From contig JBAXKK010000054.1 of assembly GCA_037137395.1 (NCBI GenBank), positions 1 to 18,137 of the forward strand: DNA of 18,137 nt, in the 5' to 3' direction. Numbering within the stretch: position 1 is the stretch's first letter; each line of letters opens with the position of its first letter. A program made the position numbers and the translations under genes. Under the pieces are notes generated by a model. It worked only from the letters and a program-made list of their open reading frames with translations, did no database searches and was not told the DNA's origin. This document shows positions 2,805 to 10,668 of the stretch, one piece after another. The DNA is from Elusimicrobiota bacterium. Its GTDB lineage: Bacteria; Elusimicrobiota; Elusimicrobia; Elusimicrobiales; UBA9959.

Positions 2805-4475
2805 TTATCTTCCGGCAGCCGGCGCTGGTTGTTTTCCGCGTTCCCACGCTTCTGAAGCTTTTAATGCGGCAATGGCGTCGGAATAATCCGGATTTATTTC
2901 AAGCGTCCTTTTCCATTCACTTCTGGCCTCAGCCGGCTTGCCCGCCTTATAATAGAGAAGCCCAAGATTAAAATGGGCGTTATCGTAGTTGGGATTAATC
3001 GCCAGCTCCAACTGATATTCCTTAAACGCCGCGTCCAGTTGGCCGCGCGAGGCGTAAATAAGCCCCAGGTTATTGTGGACCATTTGTTCCGTGGGATTTA
3101 AAGCCAGAGATTTCTTATAATAATTTTCCGCCAGGTCGTGTTGTCCGTTAAGATAATACATGGCCCCCAGATTTCTTTGAGCCAGCGGCGAATGGGGCGA
3201 GGCGGAGGCCGCGTTCTTCCAAAAAGACAATCTGTCCGCAAAGTTTCCCTGATAATTAAAGGTGATAACCACAAAAACGCACAGGAGCGTCAGGGTTAGA
3301 TATAGATGGGCTCTCTTTTTGAAATCAAGCGAGCTCAGCATTTTTGTTTCCGCCAGAATTATGAAAATCCCTATAATCGGCAGATACACCCGGTGCTCTA
3401 TAAAATCCGCCGTTAACTTCGTGTCCGGTCGGATAAATGACGGAAGCAAAAACGCCAGAAACCAGAGTGTTCCGAATAAAACCATTCCCTCGCTTTTCTT
3501 TCTCAGCCCTGTCGCAACCATTGCCGCCAGGCCGACCAAGGCTAAGATCCCCCACCCGAAACTTGTATCCCGCATGATAGGCAAAACGGATAAATTAAAC
3601 GGAAAAAAGACCTTCCCGATAAACTGGATAAGCGCAGGACTGTTTATTATCACCGATTTAATCATCTCCAAAGCAGTCAGCGGCAGCGGGTTATTCCCCA
3701 GCGCGGCGTGGCGCAGCCACAGCCAGATAAGTCCAGCCGCGGCGAATCCGGCCGCTATCCACCAGGGTTCTTTGCGCGCGCTTAGTGCCGCTCTTCCGTT
3801 TGTCAGTAATAAGTAAACCCCGAAGATCGCCGGGATCACTAAAGCTGTTTCCTTGGTGAAAATGGCTAAAGCGAAGAATAAAAGGCTCTTTAAAAAGGAC
3901 TTGAAATTCCGGTCCGCCCAATAGTCGATCAAGAAAATAAAGGTCGCTAAGGCAAAAATGGCAACCAAAGAATCATTGCGGCCCGGCACCCACGCCACCG
4001 CCTGCGTTAATACAGGATGAACAGAAAAAATCAGGGAGAAAAGCAGCGCCACCGCCTGCGAGTGTTTGAGCCTAAGAAAAAGTTTATAAACCAAAAAGGC
4101 GGAAAACAGGTGAAACACGATATTTGAAAAATGATACATGAATGGCGCCCCCCCGGAGATAAGGGCGTCAAACATAAAGGAGAGCGTCAGGATCGGACGG
4201 TAATAAGAAGCGGAACTGTGTAAAACATGAAAGACTTCCTGGGTGAAAGCGCGGCCGACATTGCCGATGTTTTGCAGGAAAGCCAGATTGTCCAGGATCA
4301 AAACATTATCATCAAGATAGGTAAAGCCAAAAAATAAAGCTTTGGCATAAAGCAGCAGGCATAGTAAGCCCAGAATCCCGAACACCCGCAAATCGCTTAT
4401 AGGAATCACGGAGGATACCGGCCGCGAATCTTTCCCCAGCGCCAAAGCGCGCAATCTTCTGGATTCTTTGGACAT
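2805..4475 (-). CDS. TMTC-like GT-C membrane glycosyltransferase with C-terminal TPR repeats
   Basis: 556 aa, many TM segments. First-loop FTYLDD acidic motif, YYRP, HPVLTQAVAWVPGRND, KET and EHRVYLP motifs typical of TMTC/PMT-like proteins. Three TPR units (AQRNLGAMYY, VHNNLGLIY, AHFNLGLLYY). Confidence 0.82.
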   Translation of the reverse strand: MSKESRRLRALALGKDSRPVSSVIPISDLRVFGILGLLCLLLYAKALFFGFTYLDDNVLILDNLAFLQNIGNVGRAFTQEVFHVLHSSASYYRPILTLSFMFDALISGGAPFMYHFSNIVFHLFSAFLVYKLFLRLKHSQAVALLFSLIFSVHPVLTQAVAWVPGRNDSLVAIFALATFIFLIDYWADRNFKSFLKSLLFFALAIFTKETALVIPAIFGVYLLLTNGRAALSARKEPWWIAAGFAAAGLIWLWLRHAALGNNPLPLTALEMIKSVIINSPALIQFIGKVFFPFNLSVLPIMRDTSFGWGILALVGLAAMVATGLRKKSEGMVLFGTLWFLAFLLPSFIRPDTKLTADFIEHRVYLPIIGIFIILAETKMLSSLDFKKRAHLYLTLTLLCVFVVITFNYQGNFADRLSFWKNAASASPHSPLAQRNLGAMYYLNGQHDLAENYYKKSLALNPTEQMVHNNLGLIYASRGQLDAAFKEYQLELAINPNYDNAHFNLGLLYYKAGKPAEARSEWKRTLEINPDYSDAIAALKASEAWERGKQPAPAAGR

Positions 4476-4691
4476 AATGACAAATCTTTCCCAAATAAAT
4501 GCTTTCCGTTAAGACTTAGCTATATATTTAGTGGAGTAAGTTTGCGGGCAAGACGGGATAACATAATAACCCCGGTTGAAAACTCCGCGCCATTGGTACT
4601 ATGTTATAGTAATGCCGAAGTGACTGTCAATATAAATAATATGCCCAAATCCGCTGCTAAGATAAACGTAGAATCAAGACAGATGTCGTAT

Positions 4692-4707
4692 TGGAGTGGG
4701 TGACGGG
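4692..4707 (-). other. tRNA-like 3' end fragment (T-stem 3' strand, acceptor 3' strand, U discriminator, CCA), most like tRNA-Gly
   Basis: Minus strand reads CCCGTCACCCACTCCA, one mismatch from the common tRNA-Gly ending CCCGTCACCCGCTCCA. No TTCGA T-loop and no 5' half at the expected distance. Confidence 0.55.
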
Positions 4708-4929
4708 GGATCTGGGTTAGCGAAACCGTACCGGAGTGGACTGGGCTACCAGAGGTTTGCTACGGACACTGCTTTCGCTCGGTGCTTGCATAAGCGCACC
4801 GAGCGGGTGGAGTCTTGCGACACTGGGCCCGATCCGGAAGTGCGGCCACGGTGTGGCCGACGGATGCAGTGTCCGATAGTCAAGCAAACTGCGGCAAAGT
4901 CCACTCTGGTTTCGCGTTCCAGGCCCCCG
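4704..4929 (-). ncRNA. Unidentified structured RNA or palindromic element (~225 nt)
   Basis: Nested complementary segments: 4704-4709/4924-4929, 4711-4715/4919-4923, 4720-4727/4908-4915, 4734-4742/4898-4906, 4755-4761/4883-4889, 4763-4772/4866-4875. Inner hairpins 4776-4785/4796-4805, 4832-4836/4861-4865, 4843-4849/4853-4859, plus GTC-GCAA-GAC (GNRA loop on the minus strand, 4812-4821). Confidence 0.65.
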
Positions 4930-4969
4930 GCAGGACCCGCGAACCAGTAGGCTATAAATGAATAAAAAT

Positions 4970-6031
4970 TTATTCGGCAGCTTTCGGAACAGCGTACCAG
5001 CGGCGGCCTATCCAAAGCGAGACATTCACAAGGCCTATCAGCACCGGCACTTCCACAAGCGGCCCTATGACGGCGGCGAAGGCGGCGCCGTGACCTATGC
5101 CGAAAGTGGCTATAGCGACCGCTATGGCGAGTTCGAAGTTGTTTGAAGCCGCGGTGAAGGACAGCGTGGCGGATTCCTGGTAGGACGCGCCAGCCTTTTT
5201 GCTCATATAGAAGGAAGCAAAAAACATGATCGTGAAGTAAAACAGCAGCGGTATAGCCACGCGCACAACGTCCAGCGGCACCTTAACGATGTTTTCCCCC
5301 TTAATGGAGAACATTACGATTATTGTGAAGAGAAGCGCCACCAGCGTAAGCGGGCTTATGACCGGGATAAACTTTTCAGCGTACCACTCCCGGCCCTTTG
5401 CCGCTATCAGCGAGAACCGCGTGATGATACCGGCGATAAAAGGGATCCCCAGATAGATAAAAACGCTCCTGGCTATTTCACCCATAGTGATATTTACAAC
5501 CGCGCCCTCAAGCCCCAGCCAGCGCGGCACAATAGTGATAAAGAACCAGGCGTAAACCGGGAACAGCAGCACCTGGAACACGGAATTGAAAGCCACGAGC
5601 CCCGCGCAATATTCTCTGTCGCCGCGTGCCAGATCGTTCCAGACAATAACCATGGCTATGCAGCGCGCGAGACCTATCATTATCAGGCCTACCATGTATT
5701 CCGGTTTGTCCCTGAGGAATATTATTGCCAGCGCCGTCATAAGCACAGGCCCCACCAGCCAGTTTTGGACCAGCGACAGCGCCAATACCTTTTTATTAGC
5801 GAAAACTCTGTGCATCTCTTCGTATTTAACTTTCGCGAGCGGCGGGTACATCATGAGAATCAAGCCGATAGCGATGGGGATCGAGGTCGTTCCCACGTTG
5901 GACGCCGCGTTGAAGTCCGCTACGGCTTGCGGCGCCAGCCAGCCCGCGCCCACCCCCACGGCCATGGCGGCAAATATCCATAGCGTAAGATAGCGGTCCA
6001 GAAATGAAAGTTTCTCGCTTATCGCGCTCAT
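4970..6031 (-). CDS. acr3: Acr3-family arsenite efflux transporter
   Basis: 353 aa. [35 protein letters not shown] (conserved Cys), [20 protein letters not shown]. Confidence 0.97.
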
Positions 6032-6465
6032 TTTAATTCTCCTTGATCCAGTGCTTCAGGCAGCTTTAAAATAAATTCTTTGATCTCGTCACGCACGCGT
6101 CGGTAATGGAGCAGCGCTTCTTCTTCGGTTTTGGCGCCTTTGGCCAGGAACGGCGGGTCCTCAAAACTCTTATGAAGTTTCTGTGCCTTGCCGAACCAGA
6201 CCGGGCAGGCTTCACGCGCCTTGTCGCAGACCGTCACTACCAGGTCAAAATTTATATCCTTAAATTCCGAAACATGCTTTGAGCGGTGTCCGGAAATATC
6301 AACTCCGGCTTCCGCCATCACTTTGACGGCGCGGGGGTCCACGCCGCCGGGGTTTGTTCCGGCTGAGTAGGCTGATATAATGCCAGGATGAAGTTTGTTG
6401 CACCAGCCTTCTGCCATCTGGCTGCGGCAGGAGTTACCGGTGCAGAGAAATAGTGCTTTGGTCAT
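6028..6465 (-). CDS. arsC: Thioredoxin-coupled arsenate reductase (LMW-PTP fold)
   Basis: P-loop [15 protein letters not shown], resolving cysteines [15 protein letters not shown] motif. 4-nt overlap with acr3. Confidence 0.95.
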
Positions 6466-6480
6466 TTCGACTCCAAGGAT

Positions 6481-7173
6481 TTAAATTACCGCGAAAATAT
6501 ACTTAAGCCCGAGATAAACTCCGCAGGCTATAAAGGTCCAGGCGGTGACGGGTTTGGCGCAGCTTTCAAATTTATCGGCCAGGCCGGTGACGGCCGATAT
6601 TTTCTTAAGGCCGAAATCCAGCGCTACCGCCAGGGCGATAACCGGCAGGGCGGTGCCCAGTCCGTAAAGCAAAGGCAGGAAGAAGGGCGCTGAATTTTTT
6701 GCCGCCAGTGGGATTATGACGCCAAAGTAAAGAGCGGCGGAGATTGGGCAGAAGGCCAGAGCGAATATAAAACCCATTATCAAAGAAGACGCCGCTCCGC
6801 CTGTAGCTTTGAATTTTGAAAGGTCAAAAAAATTAAAGCCCATAAAACCGCGGCCGAACATGTCCAGCATGTACATCCCGGCCAGCACCAATATGGGCGA
6901 CAGCGCCTGATTGCCGTATTTTTGCATAAAGAAAGAGAAAGACGGCACGCTGAGCAGGCTTTTTACAAGCAGGAAACCGATGATGATATACGCCAGCGCG
7001 CGACCCAGGGCGTAAAGCCCGCCGTGCGCCAGCACCGCCAGGCGGCCTGAACCTGAATGTTTTGAGATATAAGTAAGAGCGGCTATATTGGTGGCCAGCG
7101 GGCAGGGGCTCACCGAGGTGATAAATCCCGCCCACAGAGCCGTCAGGGCTGCCGCCCATAATTCAGCGCTCAT
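6481..7173 (-). CDS. arsG: ArsG-family (CcdA/DsbD-like) membrane protein
   Basis: 230 aa, about 6 TM segments, SPCPLATNIAA and ALAFCPISAALYFG motifs, located in an ars operon next to ArsE/ArsF-like genes. Confidence 0.82.
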   Translation of the reverse strand: MSAELWAAALTALWAGFITSVSPCPLATNIAALTYISKHSGSGRLAVLAHGGLYALGRALAYIIIGFLLVKSLLSVPSFSFFMQKYGNQALSPILVLAGMYMLDMFGRGFMGFNFFDLSKFKATGGAASSLIMGFIFALAFCPISAALYFGVIIPLAAKNSAPFFLPLLYGLGTALPVIALAVALDFGLKKISAVTGLADKFESCAKPVTAWTFIACGVYLGLKYIFAVI

Positions 7174-7733
7174 TTCTCATCCAGCAGCTTATGTGTTTCG
7201 GCGGTAACATAATTCACAAAAGCTTCTTTGTCACCGAGAAGCTGCCAGACCTTTTCAAGTTTCACCCACTTAAGAGGTTTGTCTCCTGCGAACTTCTGCA
7301 CGACCACGGACTTGGAGTTGAGCCAGTAGTCCTGCACAAAATGGTTATTCAGCTCATCGTCCACATTTACGCCCTTAAAGGCGATCTTCCAGCCCTTATA
7401 ATCGGCTGAGAAGTTTTTCTCCACGGCCTCCCGCGTGTAAGCCTCTATGGCTTTGCAGGAAGAGCAGCGCGTATTGGTGTAGAAATAATAAACCGCGGCT
7501 GTTTTTAAACCAGTCTTTTTTACCGCTGAGGCCGGGGTTTTAATAGCGGCCGGGCCGGTGGCGGGCCGGACGGCTGCCGCCTCTGTGGGCGCGGCTTGGG
7601 TTTTGCTCTTCGCACAACAGTTAAAGCCGGCTATTTTATACACAGCTGCTCCGATACTCAGAACTACAAAACCCCAAAGCAGATATTTTAGAACGCCGTG
7701 ATCTCGGCTTGCGGATAAATCTTTAAAAGTCAT
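7170..7733 (-). CDS. arsF: ArsF-family thioredoxin-like protein with N-terminal membrane anchor
   Basis: TM segment (YLLWGFVVLSIGAAVY), Ala/Pro/Thr linker, then VYYFYTNTRCSSCKAIE (CxxC). 4-nt overlaps with both neighbours. Confidence 0.75.
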   Translation of the reverse strand: MTFKDLSASRDHGVLKYLLWGFVVLSIGAAVYKIAGFNCCAKSKTQAAPTEAAAVRPATGPAAIKTPASAVKKTGLKTAAVYYFYTNTRCSSCKAIEAYTREAVEKNFSADYKGWKIAFKGVNVDDELNNHFVQDYWLNSKSVVVQKFAGDKPLKWVKLEKVWQLLGDKEAFVNYVTAETHKLLDEK

Positions 7734-7972
7734 TCGGCCTCCGAGATTATTTTCTTTAGTTCCTGGGTGGCTGGAATCCTGGCTGAAAATTTAACTTTAC
7801 CGTTTATAGCTAAAGCCGGGGTCATCATAACTCCCATGTCGGTTATCTTGTTTATATCATTGATCTTTTCCATCTCATACTTTATTCCAAGTTCTTTGGC
7901 CGCAGCTTCAGCTGCCGCGTAAAGCTTATTGCATTTTGGACAGCCCATGCCCAGTATTTGAATCTTGATCAT
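7730..7972 (-). CDS. arsE: Small thioredoxin-like protein (MTH895/ArsE type)
   Basis: IKIQILGMGCPKC...GVMMTPALAING. Start set at ATG 7972, which has a GGAGG SD just upstream; the ORF-track start at 7993 runs into the repeat tract. Confidence 0.85.
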   Translation of the reverse strand: MIKIQILGMGCPKCNKLYAAAEAAAKELGIKYEMEKINDINKITDMGVMMTPALAINGKVKFSARIPATQELKKIISEAE

Positions 7973-7988
7973 AAAACCTCCATTGGTT

Positions 7989-8037
7989 GCCATACATTAA
8001 CCGCCATATGCTTTAGGCCGTAAGCCATAAGCTTTAA
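7989..8037 (+). repeat. 7-bp-period repeat tract (GCCATAR/GCTTTAR family)
   Basis: In phase: gccatac attaacc gccatat gctttag gccgtaa gccataa gctttaa. Confidence 0.8.
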
Positions 8038-8044
8038 AATTCTC

Positions 8045-9007
8045 TTACTTTACTATCAGATTAAACAAGAACCCTGTGAATATTATCCCCATGCCTACTA
8101 TCCCGAAGAAAATAAAAAGCAGTTTGATCTTCATAACGCGGCGCAGTATCAGAAACTCCGGCAGCGATAAACCTGTTACCGCCATCATAAACGCCAGCGT
8201 TGTGCCCAGCGCCACGCCTTTTTCAGTAAGGGCGCTTACCAGCGGGATAATCCCCGCGGCGTTTGAATAGAGCGGGATGCCCACCAGCGTTGCCAGCGGC
8301 ACCGCGTACCATTTATCAGCCCCGGCCCAGCGCGCGAGGAAGTTTTCAGGCACATAACCATGTATCCAGGCGCCTATTCCTATGCCTATGAGCACATAAG
8401 GCCATACTGTCTTAAAAATATCCGCTGTGTAGTCCCGGGCGTAAGTTAAGCGCTCAGGCCAGGACATCGTAGCGCCGAAAGCGATGTTCTGTATCCTCTT
8501 TGAAAGATCAAAACCTTCAAGCAGATATTCAAGGTTAAGCTTGCCGATTATAAGCCCTGAAACGACCGCGATAACAAAACCGCTTAACGCGTAAAGAGCG
8601 GCTATTTTAAAGCCGAACATGCCGAACAGCATCACAAGAGCAACCTCGTTTATCATCGGCGAGGCAACCAGGAATGAGAAGGTTACGCCCAGCGGAATGC
8701 CTGTCTGTATGAAGCCCAGGAACAGCGGTATAGCGCTGCAGGTGCAGAACGGAGTTATAATGCCGAGGCCGGCCGCCCACAAATGTCCGGAAAACCTGCT
8801 TTTTTTGAGAATTATTTCTCTTATTTTGGAAGGCGGCAGGAAGGTGCGTATTATGGAAACCGCGAAGATTATACCGGCCAGAAGTATGAATATTTTTATC
8901 GTGTCAAAAATAAAAAAGTTTACGGATCCGCCCGCCAGCGTGTTGCGGCCAAGGCCGAAAACTCCGTATACAATCCAATCGGAGAAAATCTGAACAGGCT
9001 TAAACAT
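8045..9007 (-). CDS. arsP: ArsP-family (DUF318) organoarsenical permease
   Basis: 320 aa. GIITPFCTCSAIPLF, SFLVASPMINE, GIPLYSNAAG and GLSLPE motifs; directly follows arsR. Confidence 0.9.
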   Translation of the reverse strand: MFKPVQIFSDWIVYGVFGLGRNTLAGGSVNFFIFDTIKIFILLAGIIFAVSIIRTFLPPSKIREIILKKSRFSGHLWAAGLGIITPFCTCSAIPLFLGFIQTGIPLGVTFSFLVASPMINEVALVMLFGMFGFKIAALYALSGFVIAVVSGLIIGKLNLEYLLEGFDLSKRIQNIAFGATMSWPERLTYARDYTADIFKTVWPYVLIGIGIGAWIHGYVPENFLARWAGADKWYAVPLATLVGIPLYSNAAGIIPLVSALTEKGVALGTTLAFMMAVTGLSLPEFLILRRVMKIKLLFIFFGIVGMGIIFTGFLFNLIVK

Positions 9008-9354: not shown

Positions 9355-10668
9355 TTAGTGGTTAGCGGCGGGTTGCACTTTGCTTGATAAGTCCCTTTTG
9401 GCGAAGAGGCCGTAGATTATGGAGCGGACCAGGCCGGGATGCCGCAGGAGCCAGCCGGGGCGCTCGGCCAGTCTGAGAGGAAGTTTGCGGCGGAAGTAGC
9501 CGGAGAGTTTTACGATCGCGTCCTGGACGCCGGCCTCCAGTTCTTCCGGGGTCATGTTTTTAGGTTTGAAGACGGCGTTAGCCCAGCCGAAATTCATGCG
9601 GTCCTTACCTTCCAGAAGCCGCCCCTCTTTTTTGAACTGCTCATATATTTTAGTGCCGGGATACGGCGTTAGTACATAAAGGTTCGCGTCGTCCAGATTT
9701 ATCTCTTTGGCCATAGCCACGCTGCGCGCGAAGATCTCTTTGTCGTCGGTGTCGAAGCCGAACATCAGGAACCCCGTGACCAATATGCGGTGTTTGTGCA
9801 GGAGCGAGACGGCGGCTTTGTAGTCGCCGATATGATTGTGGTCTATGGCCGCCCATTTAAGAGATTCGGGGCTGGAAGTCTGAAATCCCATCTGAACATG
9901 GAAGCAGCCCGCTCTGGCCATTTTCTCCACCAGCAGCGGGTTCTTGGCTATGGTGGTGGGCGCCTGTATTGAAAATATTTTTTTGAGAGGGGCTATCCTG
10001 TCGAAGAGCGCCATGGCGTAGGCCGGATCGGCGAAAAGATTATCGTCTACGAAATAGATAACTTTCTGTTTTAAGCTTTTAAGCTCTTCGTAGACTTTCT
10101 CTATGTCCCTTTTGCGGTAGGCGCTCCATGGGACTTCCGGCAGGTAGCAGTAGAGGCATTTATTGGGACAACCCCTGGTGGCCTGGATGCAGGATATCCA
10201 CGAGGTTTCGTTCAGCAGGTCCCGTCTGGGCGCGGGTACATCGTCCATGTCGGTAGGCCGGTCGCTTTTGTAAATGTTTTTGAGCTCGCCTTTCCCGGCG
10301 TCGGTCAGGAGTTCTTTCCATACATATTCCGCCTCCCCCACAACCACGGCGTCGGAGTGCGCGAGGCATTCCTGCGGCAACAGGCTGGGATGCGGCCCGC
10401 CCATAACCACCTTTGCCCCTTTTGCCCTGAATCTGTACGCGATGGCGTAGGCCTGCTCCGAGGTGAAGGTTGTGACCGTTATACCCACGAGGTCGAAGTT
10501 CTTTTCATACGGTATCGCGTCCCAGTCTCCGTCCGCAACTGTCACTTCGTTGCCGTCGCTTAAGGCCGCCAGTATGCCAAGATTGAGGGGCGTAAACTTG
10601 ACGCTCTCAAGCAGGCGATACAGGCCGCCTTTAACGAACCATCTGGGTTTAATCAGGAGTATCTTCAT
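9355..10668 (-). CDS. B12-binding-domain radical SAM protein
   Basis: N-terminal cobalamin-binding-like region (DLVGITVTT, VVMGGPHPS, VVVGEAE), TRGCPNKCLYC (CxxxCxxC), FVDDN, TPYPGT. Start moved to ATG 10668 (MKILLIKP) to avoid overlap with the upstream gene. Confidence 0.92.
   Translation of the reverse strand: MKILLIKPRWFVKGGLYRLLESVKFTPLNLGILAALSDGNEVTVADGDWDAIPYEKNFDLVGITVTTFTSEQAYAIAYRFRAKGAKVVMGGPHPSLLPQECLAHSDAVVVGEAEYVWKELLTDAGKGELKNIYKSDRPTDMDDVPAPRRDLLNETSWISCIQATRGCPNKCLYCYLPEVPWSAYRKRDIEKVYEELKSLKQKVIYFVDDNLFADPAYAMALFDRIAPLKKIFSIQAPTTIAKNPLLVEKMARAGCFHVQMGFQTSSPESLKWAAIDHNHIGDYKAAVSLLHKHRILVTGFLMFGFDTDDKEIFARSVAMAKEINLDDANLYVLTPYPGTKIYEQFKKEGRLLEGKDRMNFGWANAVFKPKNMTPEELEAGVQDAIVKLSGYFRRKLPLRLAERPGWLLRHPGLVRSIIYGLFAKRDLSSKVQPAANH

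Follow-up and report, generated by a model that had tools for sequence, protein, structure and literature searches.

A Y-Shaped, Gene-Less Structured Repeat Restricted to One Family of Elusimicrobia, Probably a Non-Autonomous Mobile Element

Introduction

BIME, ERIC/IRU, Correia/NEMIS and RUP sequences are intergenic imperfect palindromes of 100–250 bp that are modular, occur as nested or truncated copies and can sit at gene ends. Palindrome-associated elements derived from IS200/IS605 form strand-specific hairpins in single-stranded DNA, need no terminal inverted repeats and are not known to generate a target duplication. REPINs consist of two REPs of 20–40 nt. According to PMC3116915, compensatory changes are common in their DNA hairpins.

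The locus described here belongs to an uncultured Elusimicrobiota bacterium whose genome (G000; 2.70 Mb in 174 contigs) is 98.9% complete and 7.7% contaminated. The window, i.e., the whole stretch of DNA that was analyzed, is 18,137 nt long (positions 1 to 18,137 of contig JBAXKK010000054.1, assembly GCA_037137395.1). An initial annotation had placed at positions 4704–4929 an unrecognized structured RNA, described as a long interrupted rod capped by a multi-branch head, and had proposed either a novel class of non-coding RNA or a non-autonomous mobile element. Our analysis identified this stretch as one copy of a gene-less repeat, called here the Y element, and refuted a single-locus RNA gene.

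Results

Ends and Fold of the Window Copy

The structured unit of the window is a long variant (255 nt) of the Y family and spans positions 4691–4945 on the + strand (C54:4691-4945 in G000; covariance-model match of 94 bits, E 9.2e-19). In metagenome contigs from four runs, in which depth is 270–585 within the element versus 12.4 in the flank, unrelated sequences join exactly at 4691 and 4945, and these positions were therefore taken as the ends of the unit. The interval 4704–4929 annotated initially was too short, since the outermost helix (4696–4701/4935–4940) lies outside it. The contigs of these four runs break within the repeat, and none of them bridges an empty or a filled site.

Comparison with 200 dinucleotide shuffles of each strand confirmed the strong fold. 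As RNA, region 4690–4945 reaches −141.0 kcal/mol on the + strand (z −7.78; shuffle mean −102.6, sd 4.9) and −122.3 kcal/mol on the − strand (z −7.20; shuffle mean −88.4), and none of the 200 shuffles is as good on either strand. The description as a long interrupted rod with a multi-branch head also holds once the ends are corrected: in the + strand minimum free energy (MFE) structure, nested helices of 6, 6, 6, 8 and 10 bp are followed by four short ones of 3, 3, 5 and 3 bp and by a last one of 10 bp, forming a rod that closes a junction with hairpin A (12 bp) and a second arm. In the family consensus, this second arm corresponds to a small module hairpin and hairpin B, in agreement with the three hairpins originally seen at the head.

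The base of the rod is a four-segment stem. Its 5′ strands (4696–4727) are P1a (4696–4701), P1b (4704–4709), P1c (4711–4716) and P2 (4720–4727), and its 3′ strands (4908–4940) are P2 (4908–4915), P1c (4918–4923), P1b (4924–4929) and P1a (4935–4940). Above it lies the rod extension, whose 5′ arm (4736–4776; skipped in short forms, joint 4735>4777) pairs with its 3′ arm (4862–4905; joint 4861>4906). Hairpin A (4774–4807) has a covarying stem and a conserved CTTGCRTA(A)GCG tip. It is followed by an optional module (4806–4832) that starts with GGGTGGAG, includes GACACTGGGC and is found in mid-sized and long copies, and then by hairpin B (4839–4862), whose covarying stem surrounds an invariant CACGGTGTG tip. 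The GCAA loop of the minus strand that had been pointed out is present in the window copy (TTGC on the + strand, 4815–4818), but this loop differs from copy to copy and is not maintained as GNRA.

A search of the whole window against Rfam 15, with its families of tmRNA, SRP RNA, RNase P, 6S RNA, riboswitches, ribozymes, HEARO, Y RNA-like and other RNAs, gave no match at the gathering threshold. With E ≤ 10, region 4450–5050 matched only mir-35 (18.8 versus 70.2 bits) and sR32 (11.3 versus 40 bits), both at chance level, and 10 short and mid-sized copies gave no match at E ≤ 1. Three other candidates were rejected. A CUGANGA word beside hairpin A recalls a hammerhead ribozyme, but it is located in an internal loop, the rest of the hammerhead core is lacking and none of the ribozyme models matched; ARAGORN called no tRNA or tmRNA gene in 4500–5100; and the 84-aa ORF at 4696–4950 was discarded as a gene, since every + frame is closed by stop codons in several copies and the modules have lengths that three does not divide.

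Copies and Modular Architecture

BLAST of the G000 genome yielded 80 matched pieces, corresponding to 67 HSPs in 35 loci. At E ≤ 1e-3, a covariance model derived from 20 copies of this genome gave 39 matches in it (24 of at most 150 nt, 10 of 151–210 nt and five of at least 211 nt), a number that contradicts a single RNA gene. These Y-shaped repeats, which range from 142 to 255 nt, are dispersed between genes across the genome, and some of them are truncated or interrupted. Two copies, C37a and C71, differ at only 1 of 144 positions and have unlike flanks, so that near-identical copies occupy unrelated loci.

The alignment of 23 complete copies delineated a common core of 142–148 nt made of the four-segment basal stem, the junction and hairpins A and B. 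Two optional pieces can be added at the junction: the module of ~25 nt located 3′ of hairpin A and, in two copies, a small extra hairpin. Furthermore, five copies carry the 5′ extension (41 nt) and four of these, including the window copy, also carry the pairing 3′ extension (44 nt); the full rod is thus found in the window copy and three others of this genome.

Complementarity is the only support for the helices of the rod extension. Their covariation cannot be judged because the four G000 copies that carry both arms are nearly identical there; as these copies show no covariation in the additional rod helices, the ordered nesting is not decisive for a selected RNA fold. In G001, a genome of the same genus, three copies have the 3′ extension without the 5′ extension, and there the 3′ extension is complementary to the optional module. 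The 5′ extension and the optional module have the words GTGGA and ACACTG in common. Since the 3′ extension is complementary to the optional module as well as to the 5′ extension, the window copy can pair it in two ways. We infer that its long rod arose when the optional module was duplicated and inverted, and that this rod would serve no separate function.

A relative of the 5′ extension module was also found at G000:C65:10035-10240. At this locus, a tRNA-Pro(GGG) gene is followed, ~110 nt further on, by a second copy of its last 23 nt, and the interval holds this relative; this arrangement resembles the scar of a very small integration event at the end of a tRNA gene.

Covariation and Strand Preference

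The basal stem (P1a–c and P2) and hairpins A and B covary, both among the copies of G000 and among copies from other MAGs. In alignment A1 (20 copies of G000), 91.1% of the cells are paired versus 34–47% when the partners are slid by 1–3 columns, and both partners change in 17 of the 49 pairs; four of the five measures are reached by none of 500 shuffles, and the fifth (further pair types) is not above shuffles (332/500 reach it). In alignment A2 (84 copies from other named MAG records), 90.8% of the cells are paired versus 36–47% after sliding, 37 of the 49 pairs covary and none of 500 shuffles reaches any of the five measures. A2 is an alignment fitted to the model, and the search pattern used to pick its loci keeps the hairpin B tip constant, so that the apparent conservation of this tip is inflated in A2.

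The + orientation folds better in 23 of the 23 copies, a count that, like those of the shuffles, does not represent independent trials since copies are related within and between genomes. The mean difference is −11.1 kcal/mol with RNA parameters and −5.5 kcal/mol with DNA parameters. In agreement with this orientation, G.T cells outnumber A.C cells (121 versus 32, or 65 versus 32 without the dominant pair). Therefore, the folded strand is not that of acr3, as had been proposed, but is opposite to both neighboring genes, i.e., the gene of the Acr3-type permease (Pfam SBF, E 1.4e-60; 4970–6031, − strand) and that of a PMT_2/TPR protein, located downstream on the − strand (2805–4475). The distance from the end of the element to the stop codon of acr3 (4970–4972) is 24 nt and not 40 nt.

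The acr3-like gene is part of an arsenic-type gene run on the − strand (4970–9007), which includes, besides the Acr3-like SBF permease, a low-molecular-weight phosphatase/ArsC-like protein (6028–6465), a DsbD_2 membrane protein (6481–7173), an unassigned 187-aa ORF (7170–7733) and an ArsP_1 permease (8045–9007). A promoter-like sequence of the − strand (TTGACA-18-TAACAT, 10/12; 4601–4630) lies upstream of the PMT_2/TPR gene, just outside the insert, and is conserved in G001.

Turnover between Species

The comparison of five loci with G001 shows that the occupancy of orthologous sites differs between two species of the genus. At the window locus of G001, the acr3 stop codon is followed by GCA and then by the upstream region of the TPR gene, positions 4644–4969 (326 nt) being absent. 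The C32b copy and its flanks (~220 nt) have 13 nt in their place in G001, and the locus of C47b carries unrelated sequence. At the C18 locus, G001 (C83:30731-30777) retains exactly the first 47 nt of the element (5′ arm) without the next 180 nt, whereas C47a is intact in G001, with three differences. Such an orphan 5′ arm of 47 nt (G001:C83:30731-30777) could be mistaken for a direct repeat or an att site.

None of the loci compared shows a clean target-site duplication or an exact empty site, and G001 has a few unrelated bases at the window locus and at that of C32b. As no site gave a clean empty allele, insertion in G000 and deletion in G001 cannot be told apart. Three other genomes of the genus (G002, G003 and G006) are not syntenic downstream of acr3 and therefore do not provide an outgroup for this distinction.

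A Larger Unit with 17-nt Terminal Arms

The 4644–4969 region that is absent from the syntenic G001 site is a composite unit on the + strand, comprising a left terminal arm, a spacer, the Y element and a 3′ tail. The left terminal-repeat arm (4645–4661) has two mismatches with CCAAATCCTCCGCTAAG, and its inverted right arm is missing in the window copy. The spacer module (4662–4690) harbors a TAGAAT/TAAAAT-like box (4669–4674) and is common to 12 of the 23 copies; the promoter scan called no sigma-70-type site in it. The 3′ tail (4946–4969) is cut off at the acr3 stop codon; in the G001:C97 copy, which has the same tail, it runs on to a further hairpin module and the right terminal arm. The unit of the window, which has the left arm and this tail, is therefore right-truncated at the acr3 stop codon.

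In total, a shared module of ~46 nt precedes 12 of the 23 copies and is lacking in the 11 others. Its first 17 nt recur in inverted orientation 16–100 nt past the element in several copies, delimiting units of 224–344 nt. Such inverted arms bound the outer unit at C1, C19, C20, C30, C40 and C43, the window copy having the left arm only. The outer unit is flanked by GCTAAC on both sides at C19 (6/6), by GGAGC at C43 (offset by 2) and by GAAA at C1, and these flanking duplications are suggestive; none was found at C40. The Y core has no target-site duplication at the sites examined, and its own ends pair imperfectly with each other (P1a).

The 17-nt arms also enclose a different, GC-rich structured core (G000:C19:231-474, G000:C30:12192-12480 and G002:C15:96238-96947), and therefore several repeat families share one pair of ends. 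G002 also carries a bare 105-nt unit with these arms. Contigs C77 and C131 end inside the GC-rich structured core. Paired arms are at most 344 nt apart in G000, where none encloses a transposase gene, and the widest pairs of five relatives (~680–710 nt) contain only further repeats and no convincing gene. MAG assemblies often lose insertion sequences.

Distribution

The repeat is restricted to one family of Elusimicrobia. Matches to the covariance model, scored up to 39 per genome, occur in 65 of the 80 genomes of this family and in 6 of its 13 genera; 28 other families of the same phylum, represented by 143 genomes, gave none. Similarly, BLAST of relatives found the element in 15 of 41 genomes, all within the family. 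A pattern scan of named genome records detected at least 111 stretches; among the 80 matches listed, 73 are labelled Elusimicrobia, -ota, -ales or -aceae, six are labelled "bacterium", and one is a 1.8-kb contig labelled Armatimonadota. Plasmid and phage collections gave no match at E ≤ 1e-3. Full-text searches of the literature on Elusimicrobia repeats and on REPIN/RAYT systems yielded no description of such a repeat in Elusimicrobia.

Discussion

Mobile DNA or RNA

The rod annotated at 4704–4929 is the middle of one copy of a Y repeat, which probably multiplies as non-autonomous mobile DNA via a single-stranded form folded on its + strand. The presence of 39 copies, the restriction to one family and the turnover between species fit the mobile element that was one of the two initial proposals; the other one, as far as it implied an RNA gene at a single locus, is refuted. 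As the Y element likely spreads as selfish mobile DNA and is not a one-off RNA gene, it would be an undescribed member of an ordinary kind of element. The Y fold would be the feature recognized by a putative trans-acting enzyme, the intermediate would be single-stranded DNA rather than RNA, and the long rod of the window copy may derive from an inverted duplication of the optional module.

Several classes of enzymes were searched for in G000, and none emerged as the mobilizing enzyme. Neither TnpB (PF07282) nor the IS110 models matched anything in this genome, and the 5′ flanks of 23 copies show no fixed word and no conserved 4–5 nt target before the 5′ end. The single reverse transcriptase of the genome belongs to a DGR (G000:C52:11796-14837); it has a MutS_I-like tail and is accompanied by a bAvd-like accessory gene, and the presumed target is an Lcl_C-domain (lectin-fold) gene.

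The strand-specific fold, the conserved unpaired motifs and the tandem G.A pairs would suit RNA equally. The copies could therefore be transcribed structured RNAs, either small RNAs or cis-acting ones, expressed from the + strand, perhaps from the conserved 5′ module, and acting at the RNA level. The persistence of a G.U pair in the strand-specific fold (GU 56, AU 19 of 76 in A2), the conservation of loops and bulges among copies and the TAAAAT-like box of the upstream module in 12 of the 23 copies are consistent with such RNAs. So is a weak excess of copies antisense to co-directional neighbors: with gene calls that are crude long-ORF proxies, 12 copies are opposite to both neighbors and four have the orientation of both, eight lying between convergent and seven between divergent genes. 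However, neither a sigma-70-type promoter nor an intrinsic terminator was called within the element or next to it on the + strand, the one promoter-like site of this strand (4576–4605) being outside the insert, and 11 of the 23 copies lack the 5′ module. Furthermore, close species differ in the sites that are occupied, some copies are truncated or interrupted and the Rfam searches gave no relative. The ordered nesting of helices, put forward initially as the mark of a selected RNA fold, is not decisive, as compensatory changes are also common in REPIN DNA hairpins according to PMC3116915, from which covariation and one-strand folding would be expected for single-stranded DNA transposition substrates too. 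Overall, we consider a function as transcribed RNA unlikely.

A more speculative and quite improbable alternative is a self-propagating structured nucleic acid of a new kind, either RNA transcribed from the + strand or DNA in single-stranded form. Its conserved three-way junction and the invariant tips of its hairpins would recruit a host enzyme unrelated to Y1/RAYT, DDE or reverse transcriptase enzymes, or the RNA itself would be catalytic; the junction modules would then be swappable domains and the alternative pairing of the 3′ extension would be a switch.

Less Likely Explanations: Host Structure, RAYT and Retroelement

The structure could also have been domesticated by the host, at the DNA or RNA level, and kept as a protein-binding site, a transcription insulator or a stabilizer of mRNA ends. 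Its long persistence (six genera) and its placement directly after a stop codon for the window copy and beside a ribosome-binding site for C32b would fit such a role. However, the orientation and position of copies relative to genes are inconsistent, copies are gained or lost between close species and some have decayed; we regard domestication as very doubtful.

Also very doubtful is a REPIN-like element moved by a RAYT-like Y1 (HUH) transposase of the same genome. G000 has four PF01797 (Y1) genes whose best NCBIfam match is the REP-associated tyrosine transposase model, two of them have a Y copy within 3.5 kb, and the Y element is, like REPINs (PMC3116915), an intergenic hairpin with compensatory changes. 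However, all four proteins score 59–69 bits, below the NCBIfam cut-off of 80, and none of the four genes is flanked by a Y copy. Other repeats flank two of them on both sides and a third on one side, including the genes of C17 and C4. Moreover, within the family the two are distributed independently of each other: Y1 genes occur in 56 of the 65 genomes with the element and in 11 of the 15 without it, and the nine element-bearing genomes devoid of Y1 include some that are 91–98% complete. The defining link with RAYTs thus fails.

A short palindrome that does not belong to the Y family, with core GGTAGCGTCTACC between A and T runs, brackets one Y1 gene in inverted orientation (G000:C17:9400-9560 and 10390-10520), which is a classical REP-RAYT layout. 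The Y1 gene at G000:C4:34800-35925 is flanked by a third repeat, with words GTTCCGGGGACAGTATATTTAA arranged as inverted pairs; this repeat also interrupts a long Y copy within hairpin A at G000:C32:2638-3040.

Finally, it is extremely improbable that the Y element is a SINE-like retroelement that ends in a tRNA-like acceptor and that a reverse transcriptase copies from an RNA intermediate. In one of the 23 copies, the reverse-complemented 5′ end is similar to the 3′-terminal part of tRNA-Gly, CCA included (16 nt, 94%, E 0.027), but ARAGORN finds no tRNA, this end lies on the strand that folds worse and the only reverse transcriptase sits in the DGR cassette with bAvd and a lectin-fold target gene.

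Significance

This work removes a tempting false lead, since there is no new single-copy regulatory RNA beside the arsenic-resistance gene. Several properties of the Y family are unusual for bacterial mobile DNA: covariation maintains its three-way junction in six genera, it folds on one strand only, it grows by modules at the junction, and it has no link to the RAYT-like genes that these genomes carry together with repeats of their own. Identifying the mobilizing activity would reveal how repeats that are defined by structure and flexible in sequence spread. In practice, Y elements break MAG assemblies and can mislead the annotation of non-coding RNAs in Elusimicrobia.

Comparison with Known Systems

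The one-strand hairpin fold of the Y element recalls the palindrome-associated elements derived from IS200/IS605. However, its arms are unlike each other, no fixed target word precedes its 5′ end and no TnpB was found in the genome. Compared with MITE-like palindromes, the Y core shows no target-site duplication at the sites examined, and neither G000 nor five relatives yielded a parent insertion sequence that shares the terminal arms.

Like REPINs (PMC3116915), the Y element is extragenic, gene-less, short and present in tens of copies, with a long hairpin predicted in single-stranded DNA or mRNA, compensatory changes across this hairpin and vertical persistence in a lineage. Unlike them, it does not consist of two REPs of 20–40 nt, nor do its ends form a short REP doublet; instead, it has a conserved three-way junction, two unlike arms and optional modules. 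Its independence from Y1 genes, which neither lie next to it nor follow its distribution, also separates it from REPIN/RAYT systems. In habit, it is similar to BIME, ERIC, Correia and RUP sequences, from which it is distinguished by a shape that is kept by covariation and on one strand only.
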